DNA of 63,757 nt from Bacteroidia bacterium (GCA_037969175.1 JBBKWX010000055.1:1-63757); one strand, 5' to 3'. Positions 18,018 to 53,092 are shown, counted from the stretch's first letter. Notes: a model not told the origin generated them from the letters alone. Numbers and translations: made by a program.

Positions 18018-19826
18018 ATGGATATTAAAATAATAATAGTACTAGTTGTTCTAACCTTTTTAGTCACAGCCCTTTACAGGGACTGGTTCAGACCTGTACT
18101 GGTTTTTCTTATTTCTATCATTGCATTGAATTTAACAGGTGTACTCACAGCCGAAGACACTTTACATGGCTTTGCGAATAAGGAGATTGCTGTAGTATTG
18201 ATGTTGATCATACTTGCAGGGATTATAAAAAGACTTGGATTGATAGAAGGTTTATTCAGAAGCCTTCTGAAACCGAAAATGAGTTATAATTCCTTCCTGT
18301 TTAAAATGATGGCAGGGACCAGTCTAGTTTCCGGCTTTATCAATAACACTCCTTTGGTCGCCATAATGATCCCTTATGTCTCTAATTGGGCCAAGAAAAA
18401 GGGAATTACTCCCAGTAAAGTACTTATCCCGCTGTCATATGCTACAATTTTAGGAGGTACTCTGACACTTATTGGTACATCTACCAACCTGATTGTGAAT
18501 AGCCTGGTTATTGAAGAAAAAAAGAAGGGTATAGCACTGGGAATAGAGGGCTTACAGAATTTACAGGAGTTGCATTTGTTTGATTTTACAGCTGTTGGCT
18601 TTCCATTGTTGATCATTGGTTTGATATATCTGATGTTCGCCTCAAAGTATCTTTTACCAAGCAGGCTGGATGCAATAGACGAATTTAAGGTGCATAAACG
18701 CGAATACCTAGTTCAGACGGTTTTGAAGAAGAACTCCTCTCTGGTTGGAAAGACCATTGAAGAAGCAAAACTTCGCCATCTTCCCGGATTATTTTTGGTT
18801 GAGATCATCCGTCGGGAACGACATATAACTCCGGTTGGTCCGGGAGAAGTTATAGAAGCTGAAGACATACTCATGTTTGCCGGCGCCACCGGAACCGTTT
18901 TGGAATTGGTGGGATCTTCAGGGGAATTGGTCATTCCGGAATTTCAAAATACAGAATCGACCGGAAAACAAGATGTTGTGGAAGTAGTGATCTCATCTAA
19001 TTCACAGCTGGTTGATAAAAAGGTAAAAGACACGGATTTCAGGGGAGTTTTTGACGCAGCCATTGTTGCGATACATCGAAATGGAGAGAAGCTTGGAGGC
19101 AAGATCGGTGAAATGGTGCTTAAGCCCGGTGATCTGTTATTACTCCTGACAGGAAAAGATTTTAATCTGAGGATCTCAGAGGCAAGAGACATTTATACAG
19201 TTTCAAAAGTGATGGAAATAAATCGTCCTCATTTTGGAAAGAGTTTATTCGTTTTATTGGGGACACTGGCAGCAATTATTCTTGCTGCAATGCAGGTATT
19301 ACCCTTGTTTCAATCATTATTAATACTGATAATCGGAAGTATCTTTCTTAAGATAATTAATCTGAGTGATCTTAAAAAAATATTGGATTTTGATCTTATT
19401 CTTATTCTGGCATTTGCATTAGCCATAAGTAAAGCAATAGTTAATACCGGCTCAGCAGAATTCTTTTCTGCAAAAATGATAACTTTGTTCGAACCTTTGG
19501 GAGTCGTAGGAATATTGCTGGGCGTCTACCTCATCACTACATTATTGACAGAGATCATCACAAATGCTGCAGCTGCTTCTATAGTGTTCCCAATTGCAAT
19601 TCAAATAACGCTAAGTTTGGGAATCGATCCAAAACCTTTCATACTTGCCATTGCCTTTGCCGGCTCAGCGAGTTTTGCAACTCCTTTTGGATACCAAACC
19701 AATCTTATGGTGTACGGTCCGGGAGGTTATAAGTTTTCGGATTTTCTCAGAGTTGGGGTGCCGTTAAATATTATCAGTATGATCGTTACAGTTTCATTGC
19801 TTGCTTATTATTACAACTTATACTAG
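18018..19826 (+). CDS. SLC13/DASS family permease with two TrkA-C (RCK_C) domains, probable sulfate transporter
   Basis: GFINNTPLVA, TLIGTSTNL, TEIITNAAAA, ATPFGYQTNLMVYGPGGYKF.DF motifs; central RCK_C pair; stop codon overlaps the cysC start. Confidence 0.85.
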   Translation: MDIKIIIVLVVLTFLVTALYRDWFRPVLVFLISIIALNLTGVLTAEDTLHGFANKEIAVVLMLIILAGIIKRLGLIEGLFRSLLKPKMSYNSFLFKMMAGTSLVSGFINNTPLVAIMIPYVSNWAKKKGITPSKVLIPLSYATILGGTLTLIGTSTNLIVNSLVIEEKKKGIALGIEGLQNLQELHLFDFTAVGFPLLIIGLIYLMFASKYLLPSRLDAIDEFKVHKREYLVQTVLKKNSSLVGKTIEEAKLRHLPGLFLVEIIRRERHITPVGPGEVIEAEDILMFAGATGTVLELVGSSGELVIPEFQNTESTGKQDVVEVVISSNSQLVDKKVKDTDFRGVFDAAIVAIHRNGEKLGGKIGEMVLKPGDLLLLLTGKDFNLRISEARDIYTVSKVMEINRPHFGKSLFVLLGTLAAIILAAMQVLPLFQSLLILIIGSIFLKIINLSDLKKILDFDLILILAFALAISKAIVNTGSAEFFSAKMITLFEPLGVVGILLGVYLITTLLTEIITNAAAASIVFPIAIQITLSLGIDPKPFILAIAFAGSASFATPFGYQTNLMVYGPGGYKFSDFLRVGVPLNIISMIVTVSLLAYYYNLY

Positions 19827-20431
19827 TGAGTCAGAAGTCGACAAATATCTTTTTTCATTCACATAATGTGAACCGTGAAAAACGTGAAAAAGCTGCCGGG
19901 CATAAAGGTATGCTGGTCTGGTGTACCGGGCTTTCGGGCTCGGGAAAAAGCACTGTTGCGAATGATCTGGAAGAAAAATTGTTTGAGCTGGGAATCCGAA
20001 CCTATATTCTGGATGGAGATAATATCCGCACAGGATTGAATAAGGATCTAGGGTTTGGTGATGATGACAGAATAGAAAATATCAGAAGAATAGGAGAGAT
20101 CGCAAAACTATTTGTTGATGCCGGTGTAGTTGTGATCACTGCATTTATTTCACCTTTCAGATCAGAAAGAAAAAGTGTGATTGAGAATATCGGCGTTGAA
20201 AATGTTTTGCAGGTTTATGTTAATGCTCCGATAGAAGTATGTGAACAAAGAGATGTAAAAGGATTATATGCTAAGGCAAGAGCAGGAGAAATTAAAAATT
20301 TTACAGGAATAGATTCACCTTTTGAATCACCTGAAAATCCGGATGTGGAAGTTAATACAGATCGTGAAGATCTTGCTACATCTACATCGAAAATATTAGA
20401 AAAATTATTACCCAAAATAAAATTAATTTAA
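19826..20431 (+). CDS. cysC: Adenylyl-sulfate kinase
   Basis: W.TGLSGSGKST P-loop, LDGDNIR.GLNKDLGF, ENIRRIGE, CEQRDVKGLY, FTGIDSPFE.P. Confidence 0.97.
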   Translation: MSQKSTNIFFHSHNVNREKREKAAGHKGMLVWCTGLSGSGKSTVANDLEEKLFELGIRTYILDGDNIRTGLNKDLGFGDDDRIENIRRIGEIAKLFVDAGVVVITAFISPFRSERKSVIENIGVENVLQVYVNAPIEVCEQRDVKGLYAKARAGEIKNFTGIDSPFESPENPDVEVNTDREDLATSTSKILEKLLPKIKLI

Positions 20432-20434
20432 AAG

Positions 20435-21340
20435 ATGTTATCCTATAATTTAAGCCATCTAAGGGAACTTGAATCGGAATCCATCTTCATCATCCGTGAA
20501 GTGGCTGCCCAATTTGAAAAACCGGTATTGTTATTTTCCGGTGGGAAAGATTCCATTGTAATGGCACATTTAGCACGTAAAGCTTTTTGGCCGGCTAAAG
20601 TTCCTTTTCCTTTGATGCATATTGATACCGGACATAACTTTGAAGAAACTATTTCTTACAGGGATGAAATGGTAAAGAGAAACGGGTTCCAATTGATCGT
20701 TGCCAGTGTGCAGGAGAGTATTAATTCCGGAAGAGCTGTAGAAGAAAAGGGACCCAATGCAAGTAGAAATGCTTTGCAAACTACAACGCTGTTGGATTCA
20801 TTAGAGCTCTATAAATTTGATGCAGCCTTAGGCGGCGCAAGGAGAGATGAAGAAAAGGCCAGAGCAAAAGAAAGATTCTTTTCTCATCGTGATGATTTTG
20901 GACAATGGGATCCGAAGAATCAAAGACCGGAATTATGGAATCTTTTTAATGGTAAGAAAAGAGTTGGAGAACACTTCCGTATTTTTCCGTTGAGCAACTG
21001 GACAGAGATGGATATTTGGCAATATTTATATGCTGAGAATATTGATATTCCAAGCATTTATTTTAGTCATGAAAGAGAATGTTTTATTCGCGATGGTGTG
21101 ATCTATGGCAATTGCGAGTTCATGACTTTGAGAGAGAATGAAAAAGTAGAAAAAATGATCGTGCGTTTTCGTACGATCGGTGATATGACATGCACCGGAG
21201 CGGTAAGTTCAGAGGCTGCTACGCTTGAAGATATAATCGCAGAAGTTAGCGCCAGCAGGGTGACGGAACGTGGAGGAAGATCTGATGATAAACGATCAGA
21301 GACTGCAATGGAAGACAGAAAAAAGCAAGGATATTTCTAA
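20435..21340 (+). CDS. cysD: Sulfate adenylyltransferase subunit 2
   Basis: LFSGGKDS, GGARRDEEKARAKER, PKNQRPELW, RFRTIGD..CTGA, MEDRKKQGYF. Confidence 0.97.
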   Translation: MLSYNLSHLRELESESIFIIREVAAQFEKPVLLFSGGKDSIVMAHLARKAFWPAKVPFPLMHIDTGHNFEETISYRDEMVKRNGFQLIVASVQESINSGRAVEEKGPNASRNALQTTTLLDSLELYKFDAALGGARRDEEKARAKERFFSHRDDFGQWDPKNQRPELWNLFNGKKRVGEHFRIFPLSNWTEMDIWQYLYAENIDIPSIYFSHERECFIRDGVIYGNCEFMTLRENEKVEKMIVRFRTIGDMTCTGAVSSEAATLEDIIAEVSASRVTERGGRSDDKRSETAMEDRKKQGYF

Positions 21341-21353
21341 AGAATTAATTTTA

Positions 21354-22631
21354 ATGGATACGAATACTATAACTGATAATTACAATAATATGGAGTTGCT
21401 TCGCTTCACTACTGCCGGTAGTGTTGATGATGGAAAGAGCACTCTCATTGGAAGATTATTGTTTGACAGCAAATCAATTTTTGAAGATCAGCTGGAAGCA
21501 GTAACGCAAACGAGTCAGCAAAAAGGATATGATTATGTAGATCTGGCCTTGCTGACAGACGGATTGCGTGCCGAAAGAGAACAGGGTATTACCATCGATG
21601 TAGCCTACAGATATTTTGCAACTCCCAAAAGGAAATTTATCATTGCAGATACTCCGGGGCATATTCAATATACCCGAAACATGGTTACGGGAGCGTCTAC
21701 TGCTAACTGTGCCCTGATCCTTATCGATGCGCGGAAAGGCATAGTGGAGCAAACCTGCAGACATTCTTTCATCGCATCTTTACTACAGATTCCGCACGTA
21801 ATTGTTTGTATTAACAAGATGGATCTGGTTGATTATTCTGAAACTGTATTTGACAAAATTGTCAGTGAGTTTAAACAGTTCAGTGCAAAGCTTGATGTCA
21901 AGGATATTCAGTTCATTCCTATCTCGGCTTTAAAAGGAGATAATGTTGTAGACCGTTCAACCAAAATGGATTGGTACGAAGGATCTACATTATTATACTT
22001 GCTGGAACATGTACATATCAGCGGAGATCATAATCATATTGATTGTCGTTTTCCGGTTCAGTATGTGATCCGCCCACAGAGTGAAGAGTATCATGATTTT
22101 CGCGGTTATGCCGGAAGAATTGCAGGTGGAATTTTCAAACCCGGTGATAAAGTAATGGTACTTCCTTCCGGTTTTACTTCTACTATCAAATCGATTGAAA
22201 CTATTGATGGACCCATACCTGAAGCATTTGCTCCTATGTCTGTCACGATGACTTTGAATGATGAGATCGATATCAGCAGAGGAGATATGATCGTTCGTGA
22301 GAATAATGTTCCGAACAATGATCAAGAGGTGGAGTTAATGGTTTGTTGGTTGAATCCAAAACCACTTGAGTTGAACGGGAAATATACAATTCGTCACACA
22401 ACAAGAGAAGCACGTTGCATCGTAAAAGAGATCCGATATAAAATGGATATCAATACGCTTCACAGAAATGAAGGAGATAAAGTGATCGCGATGAATGATA
22501 TTGCCAGAGTACATGTTCGAACAACTGTTCCTTTATTTTTTGACAGTTATAGAAAAAACAGGATCACCGGAAGTGTCATTTTAGTGGATGAAGGAACTAA
22601 TGAAACCGTTGCAGCCGGCATGATCATATAA
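21354..22631 (+). CDS. cysN: Sulfate adenylyltransferase subunit 1 (GTPase)
   Basis: TAGSVDDGKSTLIGRLL, EREQGITIDVAYRYF, DTPGH.QYTRNMVTGAS, NKMD; no fused kinase. Start moved downstream of the cysD stop. Confidence 0.95.
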   Translation: MDTNTITDNYNNMELLRFTTAGSVDDGKSTLIGRLLFDSKSIFEDQLEAVTQTSQQKGYDYVDLALLTDGLRAEREQGITIDVAYRYFATPKRKFIIADTPGHIQYTRNMVTGASTANCALILIDARKGIVEQTCRHSFIASLLQIPHVIVCINKMDLVDYSETVFDKIVSEFKQFSAKLDVKDIQFIPISALKGDNVVDRSTKMDWYEGSTLLYLLEHVHISGDHNHIDCRFPVQYVIRPQSEEYHDFRGYAGRIAGGIFKPGDKVMVLPSGFTSTIKSIETIDGPIPEAFAPMSVTMTLNDEIDISRGDMIVRENNVPNNDQEVELMVCWLNPKPLELNGKYTIRHTTREARCIVKEIRYKMDINTLHRNEGDKVIAMNDIARVHVRTTVPLFFDSYRKNRITGSVILVDEGTNETVAAGMII

Positions 22632-23440
22632 TGAGTGAAAACTTGAACAACTTTACTTTACTGGCATGTCGTGCTTCTATTGAAGCGGGTGAAGCGATCA
22701 TGAAAGTATATTCCCGTCCTATTGAAGTGGAATTCAAAGAAGATAATTCTCCCTTGACGGAAGCGGATAAATCTTCTAATATGATCATCATGAATTACCT
22801 GGCTGAAACAGGTATTCCGGTGCTGAGTGAAGAAGGAAAAACGATAAGCTATGAAGAGCGTAGTGAGTGGGATGAGTTCTGGTTGGTAGACCCTTTGGAT
22901 GGAACAAAGGAGTTTATAAAACGCAATGGTGAATTTACAGTAAACATTGCGCTTATCAGAAATGGAAAACCTGAAATGGGAGTGATCTATGTACCGGCTA
23001 CAGATATTTTATACGTTGGAATGGGCGCAGGGAAAGCATATAAATTTGAACAAGCAGCTTTGAAACCGGAAGTATTTGAAGACATAGCTCTTTTAAAAAG
23101 CGTAGGTGCTTTGTTACCTGTTGAGAGTGCGAGCCGAAATTACACGGTAGTAGCATCGCGTTCTCATTTAAGTTCAGAAACTGAAAGTTTTATTAAAGCT
23201 CTTGAAGCAGAACATGGAGAAGTGGATCTTATTTCTTCCGGCAGCTCATTAAAAATTTGTTTAGTAGCTGAAGGAAAAGCAGATGTTTATCCTAGACTTG
23301 CACCTACTATGGAATGGGACACCGGGGCGGGGCAAGCTATAGCCGAAGCCGCAGGGAAACATGTTTTTGTTTATAATGAGGAATCGGAATTGTCCTATAA
23401 TAAACCGGATCTGCTGAACCCCTGGTTTATTGTTAGATAA
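22631..23440 (+). CDS. cysQ: 3'(2'),5'-bisphosphate nucleotidase (PAP phosphatase)
   Basis: K.DNSPLTEAD, LSEE, WLVDPLDGTKEF, GSSLKICLVAEG, TMEWDTGAG. Confidence 0.95.
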   Translation: MSENLNNFTLLACRASIEAGEAIMKVYSRPIEVEFKEDNSPLTEADKSSNMIIMNYLAETGIPVLSEEGKTISYEERSEWDEFWLVDPLDGTKEFIKRNGEFTVNIALIRNGKPEMGVIYVPATDILYVGMGAGKAYKFEQAALKPEVFEDIALLKSVGALLPVESASRNYTVVASRSHLSSETESFIKALEAEHGEVDLISSGSSLKICLVAEGKADVYPRLAPTMEWDTGAGQAIAEAAGKHVFVYNEESELSYNKPDLLNPWFIVR

Positions 23441-23498
23441 GAAAAGAGAGATCAATTTTATTGTAGAATTAGGTATCTTGCCGGCTCATAAACATGCT

Positions 23499-25094
23499 AT
23501 GAGAACAATAAAGAATTGCCAACTTTTTTTATTCTTTCTTCTATTTGTTTCCACTACCGTTTTTGCTCAGGATAATTACCTTCCGCTGAGCCGTGAATAT
23601 GGAACCAGATATGAATCCTTTTTGAATCGGATCGATAGTGATATGCACACCTCTATCAAGCCCTATTCATCAAACGAAGTAAAAGCTTATTCACCTTTTG
23701 ATTCTTTGAATCAAAGTCTGGTAAAAGACTCTAAGTTCACACGGACCTTGGTCGGTCGTAAACTTTTAAAGGAACATTTATTTGTTGTAGATAAGGAAGA
23801 CTTTAAATTAAATATCGATCCTGCTTTTGATTTTCAAGTGGGAAATGAATCTGAAAAATCTGTTAATACATATACAAATACAAGAGGGTATTATGTTACC
23901 GGTAGTATCGGTAAACAAGTTTCTTTTCAAAGTTCCTTCTATGAGAATCAGGCGGTTTTTCCGGGATTCATTAAAAATTATGTGAGCTCAACAGGCGTAG
24001 TTCCGGGCCAGGGAAAAACGAAGACATTCAATACTTCCTATGATTACGCTATGGCAACAGGAAGTGTTGTTTACACCCCATCAAAACATTTCACATTTCA
24101 ATTTGGGAATGACAAGAACTTCATAGGAGATGGCTATCGTAGTTTGCTACTTTCTGATAATTCATTTTCTTATCCTTTTCTTAAAGTAACAACTACTGTT
24201 TGGAAATTGAAATACATGAATCTCTTTACTGCATTTCAGGATCTTACTGGAGGTGGCACACCTGATGTTGGGTTCAAAAGGAAGTATGGAAGTTTTCATT
24301 ATCTCGATCTGAATATAGGCAAACATGTAAGTGTTGGATTTTTTGAAGCTATCATCTGGAGAGGGGATACGCTTAACAGAGGGTATGATATCCATTATTT
24401 GAATCCGGTTATTTTTCTCAGACCGGTTGAGTTTTCTGTTGGATCTCCTGACAACGTGATGATGGGATTGAATGTCAAAGCCAAGATCTTCAGCGGACAT
24501 GTAGTATATGGGCAACTGATGCTGGATGAATTTAAGATCGATGAAGTGAGAAGTGGCAAAGGCTGGTGGGCAAACAAGCAAGCATTTCAATTAGGATATA
24601 AAGGTTTCAATATTGGCATTCCCAATTTGGGTTTTCAAACGGAGTTTAATTTTGTCAGACCCTATACCTATCAACACAGAACTACACTTCAGAATTATGC
24701 ACATTATAATCAAGCGCTTGCTCATCCTCTGGGAGCAAATTTTTCTGAGTCAGTGAGTATTTTGGATTATAGATTTAAGGATATTCTTTTCTCTGCGAAA
24801 TTGCAGATTGCAAGAATTGGTTTAGATACAGCAGGCATCAATTACGGTCAGGATATATTCAGGGATTATCTTGATTTTCCAAATCTATATGGCAATAATA
24901 TGTATCAGGGATTGGATTCAGATCTGTTCAGTGCTGATCTGCGAATTGGATATATGATCAACCCCAACTACAACATGAGAATTGAGGCTGGTTTGATGGT
25001 CAGGGAATTATCTAATTCAATGTTTGTTTCAAAAACCAATTGGATCATGTTTGGAATCAAGACAGGATTAGTGAATAAGTACTATGATTTTTAA
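23499..25094 (+). CDS. Outer-membrane beta-barrel, capsule assembly Wzi / RemB-like family
   Basis: Signal peptide; GNDKNFIGDGYRSLLLSDN, YLNPVIF.RPVEF, LAHPLGANF motifs of Bacteroidota Wzi/RemB-like proteins; aromatic C-terminus. Confidence 0.7.
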   Translation: MRTIKNCQLFLFFLLFVSTTVFAQDNYLPLSREYGTRYESFLNRIDSDMHTSIKPYSSNEVKAYSPFDSLNQSLVKDSKFTRTLVGRKLLKEHLFVVDKEDFKLNIDPAFDFQVGNESEKSVNTYTNTRGYYVTGSIGKQVSFQSSFYENQAVFPGFIKNYVSSTGVVPGQGKTKTFNTSYDYAMATGSVVYTPSKHFTFQFGNDKNFIGDGYRSLLLSDNSFSYPFLKVTTTVWKLKYMNLFTAFQDLTGGGTPDVGFKRKYGSFHYLDLNIGKHVSVGFFEAIIWRGDTLNRGYDIHYLNPVIFLRPVEFSVGSPDNVMMGLNVKAKIFSGHVVYGQLMLDEFKIDEVRSGKGWWANKQAFQLGYKGFNIGIPNLGFQTEFNFVRPYTYQHRTTLQNYAHYNQALAHPLGANFSESVSILDYRFKDILFSAKLQIARIGLDTAGINYGQDIFRDYLDFPNLYGNNMYQGLDSDLFSADLRIGYMINPNYNMRIEAGLMVRELSNSMFVSKTNWIMFGIKTGLVNKYYDF

Positions 25095-25124
25095 GGAAAT
25101 CGATATAAAAACAAGGGATTTCAG

Positions 25125-25132
25125 TATATTCG
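25125..25132 (+). promoter_or_regulatory. -7 element variant TATATTCG upstream of wecB
   Basis: Same variant as at 13232 and 48490; 25 nt before GTG 25158. Confidence 0.5.
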
Positions 25133-25157
25133 TATCCCCAAACCCAATAAACACAAA

Positions 25158-28485: not shown

Positions 28486-28539
28486 AAAATAGGACATGGA
28501 ATTGAATTCATGTAGTATAGAATTTTTGAAAAAAATAAA

Positions 28540-29526: not shown

Positions 29527-29528
29527 TT

Positions 29529-30674: not shown

Positions 30675-30675
30675 T

Positions 30676-32565: not shown

Positions 32566-32566
32566 A

Positions 32567-34179: not shown

Positions 34180-34193
34180 AATAATTTTAGCGA

Positions 34194-36693: not shown

Positions 36694-36703
36694 TAGATTA
36701 GGC

Positions 36704-39000: not shown

Positions 39001-39014
39001 ATTATACATTCCCA

Positions 39015-43248: not shown

Positions 43249-43260
43249 TTGCAAGTTGCT

Positions 43261-44298: not shown

Positions 44299-44332
44299 CC
44301 GGCGACAAGTCCAATTTATCCACCCTTATTTG

Positions 44333-44340
44333 TATTTTTG
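44333..44340 (+). promoter_or_regulatory. Possible internal -7 element TATTTTTG
   Basis: TAnnTTTG match in the 148-bp gap before the bi-domain oxidoreductase; about 105 nt from the ATG. Confidence 0.3.
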
Positions 44341-44446
44341 AGCCCTGGTTTAAGCGGGATATTTTCCTTTTATGGATTTTCATGAGGATAGATAGACCAG
44401 ATGCTTGGCTTTTAATTGCAATTGCATTTTTTGGTGAATACGACAT

Positions 44447-46621
44447 ATGAAACAAGTGATTCAGAATTTTAAAACAGGAAAGTTATATGTGGAGGATCTC
44501 CCGGCACCAACATTAAGTTCAGGTATGGTGCTGGTTGAAAATCGTTGTTCATTGATAAGTGCAGGCACTGAGCGTGGTACAGTAAAAGCGGGGAAAGCCA
44601 GTCTTTTAGGTAAAGCAAGGCAAAGACCGGATCTTGTGAAGCAAGTTCTGCAAAATGTAAAGAAAGTAGGACTGAAAGCTACACTAGAAAAAGTTAGAAC
44701 AAAATTAGATTCTTTGGCAGCTCTGGGCTATAGCAGTTCGGGTGTCGTGAGTGCATCCATGGATACCAGTGGAATGTTCAGAGAGGGCGACCGCGTTGCT
44801 TGTGCGGGAGCAGGTTATGCTTCCCATGCTGATATCATCTCCGTGCCTCAAAACCTGGTTGTTAAGATCCCGGATTCTGTTTCTTTTGAGGAAGCAGCTT
44901 TTACAACTCTCGGTGCTATTGCTATGCAAGGCGTACGTCAGGCTGATGCAAGGCTGGGAGAAAAGATCTGTGTCATCGGACTTGGTTTGCTTGGACAAAT
45001 AACTTGTCAGCTCTTGGAAGCCAATGGCTGTAGTGTATTTGGAATTGATCTCTCCACTGAAATGGTCAATCTGGCAAACAAGACCACGCAAACAAAAGCA
45101 TACAGCCGAAATGATGCTAATTTGATGAAGGCTATTGAAAATTTCACCAATGGCCGTGGTTTCGATAGTGTGATCATAACTGCTGCTGCATCAAGCAACG
45201 ATCCTGTTGAACTTTCAGCTGAGATCAGCCGGAAAAAAGGAAAGATCATTATGGTTGGTGCTGTCAAGATGGATCTTCCACGCGAACCGCATTTTTTCAA
45301 GAAGGAGCTCGATCTTAGAATGAGCTGTTCCTATGGCCCCGGTAGATACGATAGTTCTTATGAAGAGAACGGTCATGATTATCCATATGCCTATGTGAGA
45401 TTCACAGAGCAAAGAAATATGGAAGCTTTTCTGGATCTTATTGCATCCGGTAAGATCGATCTTAAACCACTTATTACACATACCTTTCCGGTAGAGCAAG
45501 CCGAAGCAGCTTACGCTTTGGTTTTGGGTGAGGTCAACGAATTTTATATCGGCATTGTACTAACTTACGCAGATAAAAAAGATACTACCCGATTGATCGA
45601 TATCAATCCATTAAAAAGGGAGAAAATAAATGTAGCCTTTATTGGAGCAGGAAGTTTTGCTCAAAGCAACCTGGTTCCTTATGTGAAATCCGCAGGGGCT
45701 TCGCTTGAAACAGTTATCACAAACAGAGGGATCAATGCAAGGAATGCTGCCGAGAAACTGGGCTTCGCGCAAGCCGGTACGGAGGCATCCATGGTTTTGG
45801 ATAATGAAAATATCAATACCGTTTTTATAGCTACTCAACATGATTCTCACGCAGCTTATGTGATGGATAGTATCCGTGCCGGTAAAGATGTATTTGTTGA
45901 AAAACCTTTGTCCATGAAAGAAGAAGATCTTGATGAATTGATCAAGGTGTATTCGGCTTCAGGGAAATCGCGGGTGATGGTTGGTTTCAATCGTAGATTC
46001 GCTCCGGTGAGTGTTGCTTTGAAATCGGAATTTAAAGGTGTGTCAGAACCACTGGTGATGAACTTCAGGATCAATGCAGGATTTCTTCCACTTGACCATT
46101 GGACTCAGGATGCTGAAAAAGGTGGAGGTAGAATTGTGGGTGAGATTTGTCATTTCATCGACCTCATGCAATATTTTTCCGATTCAGATCCGGTAAAGGT
46201 TTATGCTTCTTGTATCAAAACCTCAAATACCGCTATCCGCAAAGAAGACAACATAAGCATCACTGTCGATTTTGCAGACGGATCAATCGGGAATCTGATT
46301 TATCTGGCCAATGCCGATAGCAGTGTTGCCAAGGAGAGAATTGAGATCAGTGCAGGTGGAGTGATGGGATTAATAGATGATTTCCGTGAAGGCTTTATAT
46401 TCCGGAATAATAAAGCTCAAAAATTGAAGCTGCAAGGCAAAGGACATAAACAAGAAGTTGAAGCATTTATTCAGGCTATAAGCGATGGAAATGATTCACC
46501 GATCTCTTTTGAATCAGCTGTGCTTACTACCCGTACTACTTTCAGAATTCAGGATGCTCTTCATACCGGCTTACCTCAACGCATTACGTTAGAGCATGGA
46601 CAGGATCAGGAAGAGCTTTAG
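44447..46621 (+). CDS. Bi-domain oxidoreductase (MDR/Zn-type alcohol dehydrogenase fold fused to Gfo/Idh/MocA)
   Basis: MKQV.QN...G, SAGTE, LGYSSSG, GLGLLG, SYGPGRYD..YE, R.TEQRN; second domain FIGAGSFA, VFVEKP, GFNRRF, GEICHFID. Confidence 0.88.
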   Translation: MKQVIQNFKTGKLYVEDLPAPTLSSGMVLVENRCSLISAGTERGTVKAGKASLLGKARQRPDLVKQVLQNVKKVGLKATLEKVRTKLDSLAALGYSSSGVVSASMDTSGMFREGDRVACAGAGYASHADIISVPQNLVVKIPDSVSFEEAAFTTLGAIAMQGVRQADARLGEKICVIGLGLLGQITCQLLEANGCSVFGIDLSTEMVNLANKTTQTKAYSRNDANLMKAIENFTNGRGFDSVIITAAASSNDPVELSAEISRKKGKIIMVGAVKMDLPREPHFFKKELDLRMSCSYGPGRYDSSYEENGHDYPYAYVRFTEQRNMEAFLDLIASGKIDLKPLITHTFPVEQAEAAYALVLGEVNEFYIGIVLTYADKKDTTRLIDINPLKREKINVAFIGAGSFAQSNLVPYVKSAGASLETVITNRGINARNAAEKLGFAQAGTEASMVLDNENINTVFIATQHDSHAAYVMDSIRAGKDVFVEKPLSMKEEDLDELIKVYSASGKSRVMVGFNRRFAPVSVALKSEFKGVSEPLVMNFRINAGFLPLDHWTQDAEKGGGRIVGEICHFIDLMQYFSDSDPVKVYASCIKTSNTAIRKEDNISITVDFADGSIGNLIYLANADSSVAKERIEISAGGVMGLIDDFREGFIFRNNKAQKLKLQGKGHKQEVEAFIQAISDGNDSPISFESAVLTTRTTFRIQDALHTGLPQRITLEHGQDQEEL

Positions 46622-47768
46622 TGATCTTCGCACTTGGTGTGAAATAGAGCATTTCAGAGGTTGGGATCCTTACGACGGTCTTAATTCCAAGCTTTTCAAA
46701 CTTACTCCATTCTACCGGTTTAAATGGACTCGTTTGATCTGGATGCAGGCTTTCAAACATTTGCCTGTAAATCTTAGATCGATCACGCTTGTTCCTAAAG
46801 AAGAAAATCCGGCAGGCTTGGGTGTTTTTCTTGCAGGTTATTGTGTGCTTTTTAAGAGTGGAAAAGATAAAGGGGAGTTGGCAAAAAGCAGGATTATAAA
46901 ACTTGCTGATCAGCTATTGGATTTGCAAACTCCGGGATGGTCAGGGAGCTGTTGGGGCTACAATTTTCCTTGGCAATCAAGAGCCTTTTTTCTTCCAAAA
47001 TATTATCCTACCATCGTCGCAACTTCACATATTGCAAATGCCTTGCTCGATGCCTATGAGATCACATCGGATGAAAGATATAAGCTTGCTGCTCGATCAG
47101 CGTGTGATTTTATTTTGAAAGATCTCAACAGAAGTGAAAATGAAAACGGTGATTTTATTTTTTCATATTCACCTTCAGATACTACCCGGGTTTATAATGC
47201 ATCTTTATTAGGTTCAAGACTTCTTGCCAGAGTTGCTGCATTGACCAGTGAAAAGGAACTGCTGATTCCGGCAAAAAAAAGTGTGGATTATTGCATGAAA
47301 GATCAGCAAGCCGATGGTTCATGGCTGTATGGCAAGTTGGAGATCCAGGATTGGATAGATAGTTTCCATACAGGGTATAACCTGGAATCACTTTATTATT
47401 ATGCTGAATTTTCAGGTGATCATAGCCATAATGATGGAGTTGCAAAAGGACTGAAATTTTATTTGGAGAATTTCTTTGAACCGGATGGATCTGCGAAATA
47501 TTATCATAACAGAAAATATCCAATAGATCTTAATCCACCCGCTCAATTGATCTTGACCTTATTGGCTGCCGGTAAACTTGAAGAACAAAATGATCTTGCT
47601 AAAAACGTATTGCTTCATGCAATTGAAAAAATGCAGGACAAGAAAGGATATTTTTATTTTCAGGATAAGGGCAAGTTCAAAATCAGGATGCCCTATATGA
47701 GATGGGTGCAAGCCTGGATGTTCTATGCCATGGCAGTTTATCTGTCAAATACAGATTCGGAAAATTAA
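46596..47768 (+). CDS. Cytoplasmic (alpha/alpha)-toroid protein of glycan loci (epimerase/lyase-like, function unknown)
   Basis: GWDPYDGLNS, CWGYNFPWQSR, YNASLLG, WIDSFHTGYNL, YMRW.QAWM; repeated helix-loop pattern; no signal peptide. Confidence 0.6.
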   Translation: MDRIRKSFSDLRTWCEIEHFRGWDPYDGLNSKLFKLTPFYRFKWTRLIWMQAFKHLPVNLRSITLVPKEENPAGLGVFLAGYCVLFKSGKDKGELAKSRIIKLADQLLDLQTPGWSGSCWGYNFPWQSRAFFLPKYYPTIVATSHIANALLDAYEITSDERYKLAARSACDFILKDLNRSENENGDFIFSYSPSDTTRVYNASLLGSRLLARVAALTSEKELLIPAKKSVDYCMKDQQADGSWLYGKLEIQDWIDSFHTGYNLESLYYYAEFSGDHSHNDGVAKGLKFYLENFFEPDGSAKYYHNRKYPIDLNPPAQLILTLLAAGKLEEQNDLAKNVLLHAIEKMQDKKGYFYFQDKGKFKIRMPYMRWVQAWMFYAMAVYLSNTDSEN

Positions 47769-48463
47769 AGTTGATTCGTCAAATAAAGCCAATAGAATTT
47801 AAGCACCGTTTTTTGTCGCGGTAATTTTTTAGGATCGATCAATGCACGATACAAACCTTCATGTGCAATATATTTTTCCCACCACCAGGGAACATCAGCA
47901 ACTTTACCTGCATAAAGATCAAAACTCCCACCCAGTCCGAAGTATAATGCGGGGTGCAGCTTCATCAGGTCATCCATCAGATATTCCTGTTTAGGCGATC
48001 CCATAGCAACAAATACGGCATCCGGTTTTCTTTCCAGAATATCTTTTTTCGTTGCTTCTATGGTTGCAGCATCCAGAAATCCATTCCGGAAATTAGCAAT
48101 TTGTATCCCCGGAAAATCTATGTTTAATCGCTCCACCGTTTTATCAATGATCTCTTGTGATGCACCAATAAAATAAAATTTCTTGGTTTTATAATGCCTT
48201 GAGATATAATCCAGCCATAATTTACAACCGGGATATTTTATTGCCGAAATACCTTTTTTCTTCAAGCCTTTTACAACACTTGACCCATCAGCATAAGCCG
48301 TATGTGTATTTATTAATTGGGTGATACGTTCTTCATGCGTAATGATCTTTGGAGCGCTGAGGGCAATGACCAGAGTAGATGGGAGGCTGTCTAAATAGTC
48401 CAGGAATTCCTCCTTTTCCGTGAAGGCATGTACTTGCTTGTTATAAAATTTATGCTTTTGCAT
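47765..48463 (-). CDS. wecG: WecB/TagA/CpsF family glycosyltransferase (UDP-ManNAcA transferase-like)
   Basis: YADG.SVV, YFIGA, RNGF, PDAVFVAMGSPKQE, GLGGSFD; the only clear minus-strand gene in the window. Confidence 0.85.
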   Translation of the reverse strand: MQKHKFYNKQVHAFTEKEEFLDYLDSLPSTLVIALSAPKIITHEERITQLINTHTAYADGSSVVKGLKKKGISAIKYPGCKLWLDYISRHYKTKKFYFIGASQEIIDKTVERLNIDFPGIQIANFRNGFLDAATIEATKKDILERKPDAVFVAMGSPKQEYLMDDLMKLHPALYFGLGGSFDLYAGKVADVPWWWEKYIAHEGLYRALIDPKKLPRQKTVLKFYWLYLTNQL

Positions 48464-48489
48464 TGGATATCCCAAGGGCTAAAATTATG

Positions 48490-48497
48490 TATATTCG
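48490..48497 (+). promoter_or_regulatory. -7 element variant TATATTCG for the methyltransferase operon
   Basis: Same variant as at 13232 and 25125. Confidence 0.5.
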
Positions 48498-48524
48498 CCT
48501 GTTCATAGAAGAATGATAGGATTG

Positions 48525-48532
48525 CAAAGTTA
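48525..48532 (-). promoter_or_regulatory. -7 element TAACTTTG for wecG (minus strand)
   Basis: CAAAGTTA on the plus strand is an exact TAnnTTTG on the minus strand, followed by C. Confidence 0.6.
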
Positions 48533-48546
48533 GCATTCCCATTCTT

Positions 48547-49335
48547 TTGCTCAAAGGAAGAAAACTTAAATCAAACAAAGTGAACATCAAGCGACTGCTA
48601 AAAGGACTCAATTATCTGCTGATAAATCCAAGATATTTTTATCTGTATTACAATTCCAATGTTGATACAATACTGCAGCGAGTAAATCCGGAAGCAAAAC
48701 CTTTTTCGGAGTATATGGCGGAATTGGATGCTAACACAGCCTATAACACGGAGCTACAGGAAAAAAGTCTTAGCATTGGAAAACGCACTTTCAAGCTTCG
48801 CCCCGAGCATTATTTTTTATACGCGGTTGTTCGTGCCCTTAAACCTGCAAAGATGATGGAAACCGGTGTATTCAATGGATTCTTCACCTCTTGTTATCTG
48901 GCGGCCTTGCATAAGAATCACCTGGAGGGCGGACCTAAAGGTCTTTTGGTATCTATCGATCTTCCGCCGGTTAGTGCTATCAGTGAAAGCACCGACAGGA
49001 TGAGTAAAACCCGACTTCCTGAAGGTCACGGTTCAGGATGGGTGATACCTGATTTCTTACGCGAATATTGGGAATTACATTTGGGAGACAGCAAGGAACT
49101 TTTACCTGCCCTGGTTAAGAAAAATACGGATCTCACCTTGTTCTTTCATGATAGTCTGCATACCTATGAACACATGATGTTTGAATATGAAGTAGTGTGG
49201 CCCTATTTGAAGAATGGCTCCCTGCTTATGAGTCATGATGTACACTGGAACAAAGCATTTCCACATATTGCAACAAAATATTCTCAGAGGGATACCATGT
49301 ACAAAGGAGTTGGATTAATTAAAAAAGTATCCTGA
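48547..49335 (+). CDS. Class I SAM-dependent methyltransferase (Methyltransf_24-like)
   Basis: ETGV.NG..T, L.SIDLP, GSGWVIP, LGDSKELLP, FFHDSLHTYEHMMFEY, HDV.WN. Confidence 0.85.
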   Translation: MLKGRKLKSNKVNIKRLLKGLNYLLINPRYFYLYYNSNVDTILQRVNPEAKPFSEYMAELDANTAYNTELQEKSLSIGKRTFKLRPEHYFLYAVVRALKPAKMMETGVFNGFFTSCYLAALHKNHLEGGPKGLLVSIDLPPVSAISESTDRMSKTRLPEGHGSGWVIPDFLREYWELHLGDSKELLPALVKKNTDLTLFFHDSLHTYEHMMFEYEVVWPYLKNGSLLMSHDVHWNKAFPHIATKYSQRDTMYKGVGLIKKVS

Positions 49336-49353
49336 TCTCCCGATTCCGGACTG

Positions 49354-50487
49354 ATGAAAATTATCCTGACGGATATACTGCACCGCAAGGGATTTGATGT
49401 TTATAATATTCTGAGAAGAAATTATAAACGTGACGAGATCGTATTATTTCTTGACAAACCAGGTGCCTGGAGAAGATTCATGGCAAAGGTTGTTTATGGA
49501 GGCAAGATCCATGACTTGAACAAAGCCTCAGCAAACGATTTTTCTCAAGCTATTAACACTGCCGGTGATCTTAGTGATGCGGTCTTCATCCCTGTTGAAG
49601 AGGACAGTATTAGTTTGTTTTTAGAAGGAGTCGATGCGAATTTGATTAGAAATAAAAAGTATTTACTTCCTTCACAAAATAATTTTTTGCTTGCAGCCGA
49701 TAAACTTTTACTTACTCGTTTTTGTAATCAAAATGATATTCCTGCACCGGAAGAAATAGATCCGTTTGATAGCGAAAGTGAATTTCGCCCATTTATTGCA
49801 AAACCACGTCGTGGCTCCGGTTCAAGCGGAATTGTTATCGTTGAATTTGAAAAGGATCTGGAGAAAATTTCGGGTCTCAGAAAAGATGATTTTGTATTCC
49901 AATCTTTATTGCCCGATGGAAAAAATGTGAAAGGGACTTTTCATCTTTTTCATCAGGGAAAACAAATATCGGCTTATGGACATCAGCGGATCCGTACCTT
50001 TCCACCGGAAGGCGGAGTGACAGTGTATTCCAGATTGGATACAACTGCCGAAGCAATTGAAACCGGTAAATTATTATTGGAAAAACTAAATTGGAATGGA
50101 TTAGCTATGGTGGAGACATTATATGATCCTACAGAAAAAAAACATAAAGTAATTGAAGTAAACCCCCGATTGTGGGGCTCCATTTTACTATCCGAATTTA
50201 CAGGCATACATATGCTAAATGATTATGTAAGATTAGCCTTGTCTATGGATATCAAGCAACATGAGTTGAAGACCAAGGCATATATCAGATGGATTTTTCC
50301 TTTCGATCTTATTGCATATATCAGATCCGGTTTCAGGATAAAAGGATTTTGGAATTTTAATTTTTCTACTACCTGTTATATTAATATGACCTATGCGGGT
50401 TTTTGGAGATCTTTTTTCTTTATATTGATGGGAATACTAGATCCTGCATCAATGCGGAAATTTATTAGAAAAATTTTTAATGGATAA
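49354..50487 (+). CDS. ATP-grasp carboxylate-amine ligase
   Basis: ADK, KPRRGSGSSG, RTFPPEGG, AMVE, IEVNPRLWGS. Confidence 0.85.
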   Translation: MKIILTDILHRKGFDVYNILRRNYKRDEIVLFLDKPGAWRRFMAKVVYGGKIHDLNKASANDFSQAINTAGDLSDAVFIPVEEDSISLFLEGVDANLIRNKKYLLPSQNNFLLAADKLLLTRFCNQNDIPAPEEIDPFDSESEFRPFIAKPRRGSGSSGIVIVEFEKDLEKISGLRKDDFVFQSLLPDGKNVKGTFHLFHQGKQISAYGHQRIRTFPPEGGVTVYSRLDTTAEAIETGKLLLEKLNWNGLAMVETLYDPTEKKHKVIEVNPRLWGSILLSEFTGIHMLNDYVRLALSMDIKQHELKTKAYIRWIFPFDLIAYIRSGFRIKGFWNFNFSTTCYINMTYAGFWRSFFFILMGILDPASMRKFIRKIFNG

Positions 50488-51094
50488 AAAAAGAATACTC
50501 TTTGATTTTGATAAGACCCTTACCTACGACGATTCTTTGCTGGGGTTTTTCGCCTATTGCACTCCCAAAGGATTCCTGTTTCCATTTAAACTCTTGCTGT
50601 ATTTTGTGTACATGGTCTTAGCCAAGTTGAAGATCAAAAGCATCTTGTCTTTAAAGAACTTTGGGATCAGTTTGTTTATTTCAGGAATTGAAAAAGAGAA
50701 ACTTCTGAAATTATCAACTGAATACGCTTTCCGGATCAAAACGAATAAGGTTTACAAGGAAATGTATAAATATGAACACAAGAACGATGAGAAGATAGTA
50801 GTGAGTGCATCCTTTTCGGAATACGTAAAGCCTCTGTTTCCGGATGCTTTGTTGTTGTGTTCTGAATTGATTTACAAAGACAATAAACCCTATAAAGTGG
50901 GTCGACATTGCTTTGGAAAAGAGAAAGTGAAGATGTTACAAGAGCAGGGTATTGAAAGCGTTTATGAGTGCTATACAGATAGTCTGCATGACCTTCCCCT
51001 GATTGAGATGTCCCTGAATAAATTTCTTGTTCGAGGTGATTCCATCATAAGATGTATGTCTGTAGATGAATTTCGTAAATTGGCCGCTCGATGA
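50480..51094 (+). CDS. HAD-IB family hydrolase/phosphatase
   Basis: FDFDKTLT motif I, VVSAS motif II, CFGKEK, YTDSLHDLP motif IV. Confidence 0.85.
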   Translation: MDKKRILFDFDKTLTYDDSLLGFFAYCTPKGFLFPFKLLLYFVYMVLAKLKIKSILSLKNFGISLFISGIEKEKLLKLSTEYAFRIKTNKVYKEMYKYEHKNDEKIVVSASFSEYVKPLFPDALLLCSELIYKDNKPYKVGRHCFGKEKVKMLQEQGIESVYECYTDSLHDLPLIEMSLNKFLVRGDSIIRCMSVDEFRKLAAR

Positions 51095-51939
51095 ACATTC
51101 TCACATTTGACATAGAAGAATGGTTTCATATTCTCGACCATCCAGCAACAAGAACTGAAAAACAATGGGGGAACTTTCCTTCCAGAATCCATTCAAACAT
51201 GGAAAGGATACTTTCAGTTTTGGAAGCTCAGGAACTTAAGGCAACTTTTTTTTGTTTGGGTTGGATAGCTCAAAAATATCCTGAAGTGATACGGCAAATA
51301 AGTGATGCCGGATTTGAAATCGCCAGTCATTCTTCTACTCACCAACTGGTCTATGAGCAAAACAGATCCGAATTTCGGGATGACCTGAAAAGATCGATTC
51401 AAGTGCTGGAAGATGCGACAGGAAAAAAAGTAAGTACGTACAGAGCTCCGGGTTTTTCAATTACATCTAGTGAAAAATGGGCATTTGAAGTAATGGCAGA
51501 ATTAGGTATCGATACAGATTGTTCGATCTTCCCTGCCTCAAGAGGACATGGAGGTTTCAGTGAGTTCGGCTACGCACAACCATGCACGATAAGTTATAAT
51601 GGAATTGAATTAAAAGAATTTCCTATTAATACACATCGGTTTCTGGGCAAGGATATTATTTTCAGCGGAGGTGGCTTTTTTCGAATTTTGCCCTATCCAT
51701 TGATCAGGAAAATGATGAAATCAAGTACCTATGTAATGACCTATTTTCATCCGAGAGATTTTGACCCGGGGCAACCTGTAATAGCGGATCTGCCATTATC
51801 CAGGAAGTTTAAATGTTATGTTGGTTTAAAAAATGCCTTGCCGAAATTTAAGACGTTAACTCAGGAGTTTGAATTTATTGATATTGAACAAGCAAAATCC
51901 TTAATAGATTGGCAACAAGTACCCAAGATCACGCTCTGA
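51091..51939 (+). CDS. Polysaccharide deacetylase (CE4, DUF3473-associated type)
   Basis: LTFDIEEWFH, ATFFCLGW, EIASH, YRAPGFS, DCSIFP, GGGFFR, YFHP.DFD. Confidence 0.88.
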   Translation: MNILTFDIEEWFHILDHPATRTEKQWGNFPSRIHSNMERILSVLEAQELKATFFCLGWIAQKYPEVIRQISDAGFEIASHSSTHQLVYEQNRSEFRDDLKRSIQVLEDATGKKVSTYRAPGFSITSSEKWAFEVMAELGIDTDCSIFPASRGHGGFSEFGYAQPCTISYNGIELKEFPINTHRFLGKDIIFSGGGFFRILPYPLIRKMMKSSTYVMTYFHPRDFDPGQPVIADLPLSRKFKCYVGLKNALPKFKTLTQEFEFIDIEQAKSLIDWQQVPKITL

Positions 51940-51991
51940 TCAGTATTAATTTCTTTTTAATAGAATATGATTGTAAACTAAGTCAAAACGC

Positions 51992-51999
51992 TACATTTG
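51992..51999 (+). promoter_or_regulatory. -7 element TACATTTG upstream of wecA
   Basis: Exact TAnnTTTG followed by C, 25 nt before ATG 52025. Confidence 0.6.
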
Positions 52000-52024
52000 C
52001 TCCGTTAATTTTTATGTTTGTAGT

Positions 52025-53092
52025 ATGCAAGTGTTCCTCTATGGCTTTTTGACAGCGTTTGTAGTAACGTATGTTGCAATTCCTTCGATTATTGGAGTAG
52101 CCAAAGTGAAGCATCTATATGATGTGCCAAGCGGACGGAAGACACATAAGTCAAGTGTACCTACTTTAGGCGGTTTGGCGATTTTTGCAGGTTTTATTTT
52201 TTCATATACATTTTGGAGTGCAGAGATAGTTTTCCCGGCCCGGCCTTATATTTTATCGGCTGTTATAATTTTGTTTTTCATAGGGATCAAAGATGACCTG
52301 ATCGATATCAGTCCTTTAAAAAAATTGATCGGCCAGTTTGCTGCAGCAAGTATTTTGGTCTTTTATGCCAATTGTCGCATACAGTCATTTTATGGTATTC
52401 TGGGGATTCATGAATTATCCTATGTTGCAAGTGCAGCGTTTTCAATACTTACTATTCTCATTATAGTAAATGCATATAATCTAATTGATGGCATTGACGG
52501 TCTTGCCGGTGGGATAGGCGTTATCTCCGCATCTGTTTTTGGAGTTTACTTTATCTTGAATCATCAATACGGGGAGGCGTTAATGGCTTTTGTACTTGTT
52601 GGTAGCCTGGTCGCATTTTTGAAGTTTAATTTTTCCCCGGCAAAGATCTTTATGGGAGATACAGGTTCGCTGGTGGTCGGATTTATTTTGGCATATTTGG
52701 CGATAACTTTTATTCAAGGGTCGAGCAATTCAATTGTAGCGATCAATACAGATAGCAATAGACCAGCAATAGCTGTTTCTATTTTATTTATCCCTTTGTA
52801 CGACACATTAAGAGTGATCATTATTAGATTGATCAAAAAAAACTCACCCTTTTCACCCGATAATAATCACATCCATCATTCACTTATAGATATGGGATTG
52901 AGTCATATGCAAGTTTGTATCGTGCTATATATTGTGAATATTAGTTTCATCTTTTTCACATTTAGTTTACAAAATCTGGGAGGTGCTGAACTGCTGCTTT
53001 TTGTTTTTATTGGTGCAGTGCTATTATCCTTTCTTACCTACTTTGTAAAACGCTGGTATAAATCTTACTGGGTCTCTCATCATACAGAATGA
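52025..53092 (+). CDS. wecA: Undecaprenyl-phosphate alpha-N-acetylglucosaminyl 1-phosphate transferase (MraY/WecA family)
   Basis: RKTH...VPTLGGLAI, IGIKDD, NAYNLIDGIDGLA, PAKIFMGDTGS, PD.NHIHH. Confidence 0.9.
   Translation: MQVFLYGFLTAFVVTYVAIPSIIGVAKVKHLYDVPSGRKTHKSSVPTLGGLAIFAGFIFSYTFWSAEIVFPARPYILSAVIILFFIGIKDDLIDISPLKKLIGQFAAASILVFYANCRIQSFYGILGIHELSYVASAAFSILTILIIVNAYNLIDGIDGLAGGIGVISASVFGVYFILNHQYGEALMAFVLVGSLVAFLKFNFSPAKIFMGDTGSLVVGFILAYLAITFIQGSSNSIVAINTDSNRPAIAVSILFIPLYDTLRVIIIRLIKKNSPFSPDNNHIHHSLIDMGLSHMQVCIVLYIVNISFIFFTFSLQNLGGAELLLFVFIGAVLLSFLTYFVKRWYKSYWVSHHTE

Follow-up and report, generated by a model that had tools for sequence, protein, structure and literature searches.

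Analysis of a 63,757-nt stretch from a Bacteroidia bacterium (GCA_037969175.1, JBBKWX010000055.1:1-63757; the whole stretch is referred to as the window, and all positions are counted in it) indicated that positions 18018-53092 likely form a Wzx/Wzy-type surface-polysaccharide locus (capsule or O-antigen) co-located with its own supply of 3'-phosphoadenosine 5'-phosphosulfate (PAPS). Judged from its gene content, the probable product of the organism is a capsule or O-antigen that is multiply sulfated. On one and the same strand, the PAPS module preceded the first sugar gene by 1.7 kb. Nearly all genes between 14.5 and 53 kb were on the plus strand, and the genes for three sulfotransferases, designated ST1, ST2 and ST3, showed translational coupling with wzx, wzy and a pair of glycosyltransferase genes.

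PAPS genes and sulfotransferases

The PAPS module and the three sulfotransferase genes contained the following features:

18018-19826, plus strand: SLC13/DASS-like anion permease of 602 amino acids with two TrkA_C domains (CitMHS PF03600, E 1.3e-52; PF02080 twice; Na_sulph_symp PF00939, E 1.2e-12)
19826-20431, plus strand: cysC, adenosine 5'-phosphosulfate (APS) kinase (PF01583, E 1.2e-66; NF003013, 289 bits against a cut-off of 163)
20435-21340, plus strand: cysD, sulfate adenylyltransferase small subunit (NF003587, 461.6 bits against 195; TIGR02039, 438.6 bits, above cut-off)
21354-22631, plus strand: cysN, sulfate adenylyltransferase GTPase subunit (NF003478, 610 bits against 590; TIGR02034, 566 bits, above cut-off)
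22631-23440, plus strand: cysQ, 3'(2'),5'-bisphosphate nucleotidase, which removes 3'-phosphoadenosine 5'-phosphate (PAP) (TIGR01331, 276.5 bits against a cut-off of 228.8)
38179-39000, plus strand: ST1, like heparan-sulfate 3-O-sulfotransferases and the sulfotransferase domain of N-deacetylase/N-sulfotransferase (NDST) (PF00685, E 4.6e-16)
39015-39956, plus strand: ST2, like tyrosylprotein sulfotransferases (TPST) and CurM (PF13469, E 2.9e-11)
42403-43248, plus strand: ST3, like heparan-sulfate 2-O/6-O-sulfotransferases and Gal-3-O-sulfotransferase (PF03567, 28.3 bits against a gathering score of 22)

The junctions from the permease through cysC, cysD and cysN to cysQ measured -1, +3, +13 and -1 nt, and cysN was a separate gene with no fusion to cysC. 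The permease scored 102.5 bits on the NCBIfam DASS model TIGR00785 (cut-off 198.6) and is a putative sulfate importer. Pfam was run on essentially all long open reading frames (ORFs) of the window, with two shorter ones left out; among the scanned ORFs of the 63.7-kb window, CysD was the sole match to the PAPS_reduct family, and neither an APS/PAPS reductase nor a sulfite reductase was found. An initial annotation of the same stretch had described a permease and cysC-cysD-cysN-cysQ spaced at no more than 13 nt, three sulfotransferases of distinct motif classes and no reductase of either kind. All of this was recovered, with the four cys genes above their NCBIfam cut-offs, PF00685, PF13469 and PF03567 each matching one sulfotransferase, and the missing reductases borne out by Pfam.

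The closest PDB matches of ST1 were a bacterial sulfotransferase structure (3rnl, E 8e-37), heparan-sulfate 3-O-sulfotransferase 5 (E 2e-23) and NDST (E 8.6e-15). Its N-terminal start (MNPNFIIAGTQKGGTTS) contained the 5'-phosphosulfate loop with the motif GTQKGGTTS, and further motifs were KEIHFFD and VLRDPTQRAWS, the latter being the 3'-phosphate motif. KEIHFFD (KE-x-HFFD) corresponds to the Glu/His/Asp motif characteristic of heparan-sulfate 3-O-sulfotransferases.

ST2 contained the motifs NRSGSTF and TRDGRAAFAS and belonged to a rare family, with 47 relatives in 5.8e9 proteins. The alignment of the 47 relatives showed R140, S148, E35, K70, K116 and H234 to be invariant and R14-S15-G16-S17-T18 to be near-invariant. 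The invariant Glu was located 21 residues past the RSGST loop, presumably the spacing of the TPST catalytic base. The AlphaFold2 (AF2) model of ST2 had a predicted local distance difference test (pLDDT) score of 92.6, and its best folds were TPST1/2 (E 4e-9), with the CurM and olefin-synthase sulfotransferase domains also among the top structural matches.

ST3 contained the motifs HIEKAAGTT and FLRQPVSRYIS, and in an alignment of 42 sequences G19, R94, P96, R99 and S102 were invariant and GGH (69-71) near-invariant. Its AF2 model (pLDDT 92.9) had heparan-sulfate 2-O-sulfotransferase (4ndz; E 1e-6, template modelling score 0.55) as best fold and the 6-O-sulfotransferase next. Relatives of ST3 numbered 43, including Winogradskyella and Caldithrix proteins, and relatives also matched PF06990. 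ST2 and ST3 shared 12-19% sequence identity with their animal counterparts.

Profile hidden Markov models (HMMs) of all three sulfotransferase classes matched only ST1, ST2 and ST3 in the window. Loss of the PAPS-binding sites had been named at the outset as grounds for giving up the proposal; the 5'-phosphosulfate and 3'-phosphate binding motifs were intact in all three proteins. On these motifs and the two AF2 models, ST1, ST2 and ST3 are credible PAPS-dependent sulfotransferases. None of the three had a signal peptide, so they presumably act in the cytoplasm, where PAPS is made; two of them had C-terminal helices that may be amphipathic.

Polysaccharide genes of the locus

The remaining features of the locus and its upstream edge were as follows:

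14564-17953, plus strand: deoC, an aldehyde dehydrogenase (ALDH; 498 amino acids) and a half-length ALDH-like protein (312 amino acids)
17990-18010, plus strand: terminator-like hairpin with a T-run (8-bp stem, 6 of the pairs GC), within the 64 nt that separate the preceding gene from the permease ATG
23499-25094, plus strand: distant Wzi-like outer-membrane protein of 531 amino acids, separated from cysQ by 58 nt and followed by the first sugar gene
25158-35081, plus strand: nucleotide-sugar block with junctions of -8 to +54 nt (Pfam, NCBIfam)
35122-36693, plus strand: polytopic membrane protein of 523 amino acids, just before wzx (sequence inspection)
36704-38179, plus strand: Wzx-type flippase (PF01943, E 8.2e-13; PF13440)
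39953-41155, plus strand: GT4 glycosyltransferase (PF00534, E 3.3e-23)
41145-42413, plus strand: Wzy-type polymerase of the Wzy_C family (PF04932, 34.8 bits against a gathering score of 31.7)
43249-47768, plus strand: weak GT4, an ADH_zinc_N+GFO/IDH/MocA fusion oxidoreductase of 724 amino acids (44447) and a protein of 390 amino acids (46596) (Pfam)
47765-48475, minus strand: WecG/TagA-family glycosyltransferase, the sole minus-strand gene of the locus (PF03808, E 8.7e-35)
48547-51939, plus strand: modification genes for Methyltransf_24, ATP-grasp, HAD hydrolase and polysaccharide deacetylase+DUF3473 (Pfam)
52025-53092, plus strand: WecA-type initiating phosphoglycosyl transferase at the locus end (PF00953, E 7.1e-41; TIGR02380, E 5.2e-48, below cut-off)

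The core of the Wzx/Wzy pathway was complete, with the initiating transferase, the flippase and the polymerase all present. Junctions in this core were -1 nt (wzx/ST1), +14 nt (ST1-ST2), -4 nt (ST2/GT4), -11 nt (GT4/wzy), -11 nt (wzy/ST3) and 0 nt (ST3/GT4). The nucleotide-sugar block contained genes for UDP-GlcNAc 2-epimerase, UDP-sugar 6-dehydrogenase, two short-chain dehydrogenase/reductase (SDR) epimerase/dehydratases, DegT aminotransferase, AsnB-type amidotransferase, formyltransferase, a WbmS-like protein and a hexapeptide acyltransferase. By the likeness of these family names to the Wbp/Wbm enzyme sets, the block would produce 2,3-diamino uronic acid sugars (amide, N-acyl and formyl variants).

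Terminator-like matches from 18010 through 47768 were every one within a coding region, with no convincing intergenic terminator. The hairpin at 17990-18010 (CGCCCCGACATGTTTGGGGCG plus T-run) was strong and 7 nt before the permease ATG; it closes the deoC-ALDH unit and is the upstream boundary of the cys module. At that distance from the ATG, the promoter of the cys module would lie upstream of the hairpin or expression would depend on read-through, and the hairpin could be an attenuator. A sigma-70 promoter scan of the locus gave chance-level results and says little here, as Bacteroidota promoters also depart from the sigma-70 consensus. Rfam found no RNA element in the locus, and there were no tRNA genes in it.

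The Wzi-like protein had a signal-peptide-like N-terminus and ended in YYDF. The window protein itself had no Pfam, NCBIfam or PDB match, and a 25-sequence profile likewise found nothing in PDB; PF14052 (Caps_assemb_Wzi) was matched by 6/25 family members (best E 1.9e-8), so that its distant likeness to Wzi is an indirect one that comes through its homologues. Among 80 loci of this family (L168-L247), the gene adjoined WecA in 30 and had cyoE-COX3 neighbours in 10. The family, of about 530 amino acids, is large in Bacteroidota (7978 matches at E<=1e-10) and is called "hypothetical protein" wherever the source names it.

The 523-amino-acid protein before wzx had no Pfam or NCBIfam match; its N-terminal "NDEY", which follows the first hydrophobic segment, bears some likeness to GT-C enzymes. 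The oxidoreductase fusion gave only generic GFO/IDH/MocA and alcohol-dehydrogenase matches, and the protein at 46596 gave weak GH88/(alpha/alpha)6-like matches. A role of the latter as a uronyl C5-epimerase or heparinase-like enzyme was set aside as speculation, with no PDB sequence match even at E 10. The deacetylase in 48547-51939 scored 249.8 bits on TIGR03006 (XrtA-system deacetylase), slightly under the cut-off of 276. The genes after WecA were the housekeeping genes cyoE and COX3, then SCO1.

Comparison of related loci and competing explanations

The sample comprised 80 cysD loci with 10-kb flanks from species-representative genomes, mostly Bacteroidota (best CysD match 78% identical), of which 58 had cysDN linked to cysC and 22 were without cysC; features were counted within 10 kb. 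A cysQ gene was present in 23/58 cysC-linked and 0/22 cysC-less loci. Glycan genes (SDRs, WecA, UDP-sugar dehydrogenase, DegT, Wzx, Bac_transf, Wzi-like) were present in 24/58 and 0/22, respectively (p about 1e-4), while cysH (PAPS_reduct, about 245 amino acids, directly after cysN) was present in 0/58 and 4/22 (p about 0.005), these p-values being indicative only, as the genomes are related and the contigs of unequal length. Across these loci, cysC-linked cysDN tracked cysQ and glycan genes and never cysH, and the comparison supports sulfation over assimilation as the role of cysC-linked cysDN.

Between one and four sulfotransferases were present in eight cysC-linked loci (L015, L026, L027, L028, L030 from Winogradskyella pacifica, L031, L051 and L076), and six of the eight also contained a Wzx-type gene. 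Three of them (L015, L028, L076) were colinear with the window, having cysC-cysD-cysN-cysQ and then sulfotransferases, and L015 also had the permease before cysC.

The longer contigs opened for relatives of ST2 or ST3 (L081, L082/L083, L084, L086, L087) were each a polysaccharide locus. The gene order was Wza-Wzz-...-ST2-like-Wzx in L084 and deacetylase-ST2-like-...-GT-sulfotransferase in L082/L083, where GT is a glycosyltransferase. L086 is a contig type seen 23 times that carries a protein named by NCBI from Winogradskyella poriferorum; its order was sulfotransferase(PF13469)-Wzx-?-Wzy-sulfotransferase(PF00685)-ST3-like-GT4, continuing with ADH/GFO fusion-GH88-like-WecG-epimerase-WecA-Wza-Wzc. 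L081 had the order Wzx-ST2-like-Wzy-GT-ST3-like, together with a PF00685 sulfotransferase, WecG, exosortase EpsH/EpsI and a PF00953 transferase. L081 and L086 both combined several sulfotransferase classes with Wzx and Wzy. The sub-cassette ST3-GT4-fusion (about 720 amino acids)-GH88-like-WecG was shared by the window and L086 at 38-45% identity and was partial in L087; for its first four genes, identity between these unrelated loci was 38-46%.

The contig of L081 (ENA ERZ25072999, 67.8 kb) had the same three sulfotransferase Pfam classes around Wzx/Wzy, beside an IS66 transposase set. This locus suggests that the sulfation cassette moves between exopolysaccharide systems.

In the model proposed for the window, the SLC13-like permease would bring in sulfate, CysDN would convert it to APS and CysC would phosphorylate APS to PAPS. 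WecA would start the repeat unit on undecaprenyl phosphate, and the WecG-type and two GT4 transferases would extend it with amino- and diamino-uronic sugars from the 25-35 kb block. On the inner side of the membrane, where PAPS is at hand, ST1-ST3 would add sulfate to the lipid-linked unit, and CysQ would hydrolyse the inhibitory by-product PAP. Wzx would then flip the sulfated unit, Wzy would polymerise it, and the Wzi-like outer-membrane protein may keep the polymer on the cell. The model builds on gene identities, intact motifs, operon coupling and the comparative association, which were observed; from these we infer the substrates, the number and position of the sulfates, the identities of the sugars, the assignment to capsule or O-antigen and the exclusivity of the PAPS supply.

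Several points weigh against a sulfated surface glycan with its own PAPS supply. The sulfated glycan is predicted here from genes, and a literature search for a sulfated polysaccharide from Bacteroidota or Flavobacteriaceae found no chemically characterised example. The nearest solved folds of ST2 act on protein tyrosine or polyketides and not on sugars. No Wza, Wzc, Wzz or WaaL gene was present in the window (no Poly_export or Wzz match among the scanned ORFs); the export and chain-length genes may be elsewhere in the genome, as in many Bacteroidota. The search for reductases spans the 63.7-kb window, so a PAPS reductase elsewhere in the genome is possible, and the p-values above carry the caution stated with them. 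Lastly, the loci L052, L054 and L064 have the arrangement cysCDN-cysQ-SDR-SDR-Wzi-like-WecA, and the 10 kb read in each contained no sulfotransferase.

The last point bears on whether the PAPS module is dedicated to this glycan. The synteny sprA-gcvH-tonB-deoC-ALDH-ALDH-like...cysCDN was common to the window and several Flavobacteriales-type genomes, and sprA-gcvH-tonB-deoC-ALDH...cysCDN was kept in L010, L026, L052, L054, L064 and L068. As the cys module sits at a conserved site and relatives there are without a nearby sulfotransferase, its adjacency to this variable glycan block may be partly positional. As a rule WecA adjoins the Wzi-like gene, often by cyoE-COX3, and here a 27-kb glycan block lies between them, so that the window looks like a conserved frame (cys module-Wzi-like...WecA-cyoE) with an inserted variable block. 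The GC content was 0.34-0.37 in the wzx/wzy/sulfotransferase core (34-44 kb) and 0.38-0.42 in the flanks; low GC is typical of horizontally exchanged serotype-variable regions. It is therefore quite possible, if short of probable, that the permease-cysCDNQ genes are the general PAPS source of the genome, for this glycan plus other sulfotransferases, or serve assimilation through a PAPS reductase elsewhere, with the adjacency reflecting a conserved position beside a hypervariable glycan site. Such a general role is opposed by the complete lack of cysH beside cysC-linked cysDN, by the tracking of cysC by cysQ and glycan genes, and by the description of the same module in Bacteroides as the PAPS supply for a sulfotransferase; it contradicts exclusivity only and not the sulfation of the glycan. 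The initial annotation had called the module dedicated to surface-glycan sulfation at up to three positions. The role in glycan sulfation held up, given the intact sulfotransferases, their coupling in the core operon and the association across cysD loci, and it is well supported that this glycan is one client of the module. Dedication was not established, because the genome is known only for the window and the module occupies a conserved chromosomal site at which relatives have no sulfotransferase within 10 kb; nor was sulfation of one glycan at three positions.

A purely assimilatory role of the cys genes, leading to cysteine through reductases elsewhere and leaving the sulfotransferases incidental, is highly unlikely. 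CysDN and CysC do open PAPS-route assimilation in some bacteria, and sequence is known for the window only, but the 63.7 kb are without a reductase, three intact PAPS-dependent sulfotransferases follow 15 kb downstream on the same strand, and the assimilatory arrangement among the 80 loci was cysD-cysN-cysH without cysC and cysQ. It is unlikely that any of the sulfotransferases modifies an acceptor other than the glycan, such as protein tyrosine (in the case of the TPST-like ST2), lipids or small molecules. In favour of this are the best structural matches of ST2, namely TPSTs together with the CurM and olefin-synthase domains, and the Bacteroides case, in which the enzyme beside the same PAPS module acts on sterols. 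Against it, the ST2 gene lies, translationally coupled, between those of ST1 and GT4, relatives of ST2 in L081, L082 and L084 stand beside Wzx, Wza, Wzc, GT or deacetylase genes, and ST1 and ST3 resemble carbohydrate sulfotransferases.

The reading as a sulfated surface glycan has also a bolder form, a densely sulfated glycosaminoglycan-mimetic capsule whose amino-uronic unit is sulfated at three positions by ST1, ST2 and ST3 while lipid-linked in the cytoplasm. The product would be a natively sulfated heparin-like bacterial polymer, and the ST3-like/GT4/fusion/(alpha/alpha)6-like sub-cassette would serve as a sulfation unit that can be transferred; N-sulfation would also be possible once deacetylases of the locus had removed N-acetyl groups. 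This form is very doubtful. No GT45, GT47 or GT64-type synthase for heparan-type biosynthesis was found, the sugar genes were of the Wbp/Wbm diamino-uronic type, and the window did not contain the heparan-type pairing of a copolymer synthase for glucuronic acid and N-acetylglucosamine (KfiA/KfiC- or EXT-like) with a uronyl C5-epimerase.

Inclusion of the deoC, ALDH and ALDH-like genes in the sulfur module was considered. The trio was linked to cysCDN in about 15-19/80 loci, in colinear and divergent orientations, and the 312-amino-acid ALDH-like protein matched only positions 5-232 of the ALDH profile. The idea was rejected as the main reading: DeoC passed the deoxyribose-phosphate aldolase equivalog TIGR00126, the hairpin separates the trio from the permease, and the linkage travels with the wider sprA-gcvH-tonB synteny.

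Relation to known systems and other window features

In Bacteroides thetaiotaomicron, BT_0411-BT_0415 are putative PAPS-biosynthesis enzymes adjoining the PAPS-dependent sulfotransferase BT_0416, with BT_0412 the proposed sulfate importer and BT_0413-BT_0415 completing PAPS synthesis (PMC9417993). The window is similar in being from the same phylum and in having a PAPS cluster directly beside a sulfotransferase, a likeness at the level of family HMMs and of the published descriptions (PMC9417993). The two differ in that the BT acceptor is cholesterol and other steroids, with one sulfotransferase and no polysaccharide genes, whereas the window has three in a Wzx/Wzy operon.

The capsule cluster of Cobetia marina KMM 1449 contains cysN/C, cysD, cysQ and a sulfate permease with sulfotransferases, and in Vibrio sp. 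KMM 8419 three sulfotransferases are accompanied by a second copy each of cysC, cysN and cysD; in both, nuclear magnetic resonance (NMR) showed a sulfated product (PMC11766843, PMC11641403). The Vibrio authors regard PAPS and sulfotransferase genes as a hallmark of sulfated polysaccharide clusters (PMC11641403, PMC11766843). Like these, the window has PAPS genes and intact-motif sulfotransferase genes in or next to a polysaccharide cluster. The Cobetia and Vibrio systems are from Gammaproteobacteria, with ABC-transporter (Kps) export, rhamnose-based repeats and, in Cobetia, a fused CysNC, whereas the window is from Bacteroidota, is of Wzx/Wzy type with a separate cysC and diamino-uronic-type sugar genes, and is known from its genes alone.

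Synechan (xss) of Synechocystis PCC 6803 is a Wzx/Wzy-dependent exopolysaccharide with two sulfotransferases, xssA and xssE (PMC13125312), and shares with the window Wzx/Wzy machinery and more than one sulfotransferase. It differs in its phylum and its XssQ/R/S regulator set, and the text consulted mentions no PAPS genes in the xss cluster (PMC13125312).

The fold and PAPS-binding motifs of ST1-ST3 are like those of the animal heparan-sulfate 3-O-, 2-O- and 6-O-sulfotransferases, NDST and TPST. Unlike the animal enzymes, ST1-ST3 would be cytoplasmic, have no Golgi anchors and very probably act on a lipid-linked bacterial repeat unit, and the fold resemblance to heparan-sulfate enzymes is no evidence of a heparan-like product.

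A 2024 review listed six bacterial genera with sulfated polysaccharides and named no Bacteroidota. The earlier claim that the system lacks a characterised Bacteroidota counterpart stood as far as the polysaccharide goes, and was overstated in view of the published BT_0411-0416 module (PMC9417993) and capsule hallmark (PMC11641403, PMC11766843). The window adds a new phylum, is of Wzx/Wzy type and has three sulfotransferase classes; the design itself is already published. Similar uncharacterised loci recur in Bacteroidota, and the window is one of them. Together with about a dozen related loci, including those of cultured Winogradskyella species, it indicates that polysaccharide loci of this phylum have repeatedly brought several sulfotransferases together with a PAPS module.

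Few sulfated polysaccharides are made by bacteria. The sulfotransferases that modify them, wanted for animal-free heparin- and chondroitin-sulfate-like polymers, are almost uncharacterised. If the chemistry is confirmed, a major environmental phylum would join the known producers, three families of compact, soluble bacterial carbohydrate sulfotransferases would be at hand for testing, and the locus would be a natural case in which a lipid-linked repeat unit is sulfated in the cytoplasm before Wzx flips it. The value of the locus is in these candidates for experiment; the idea is not new and holds no surprise in principle.

Downstream of the locus, a S-adenosylmethionine (SAM) riboswitch (RF00162, 83.9 bits) was present at 58431-58536 on the plus strand, upstream of a 222-amino-acid Methyltransf_30-domain protein (58622-59290), after which came the B12-dependent methionine synthase gene metH (59300-62983). 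MetH was at most 67% identical to that of any species-representative genome, so the organism has no close relative in that collection. At the other end of the window, 19-1835 and 4961-12124 (plus strand) contained a 2387-amino-acid SprA and two proteins whose C-terminal sorting domains are those of type IX secretion, which place the organism in Bacteroidota.

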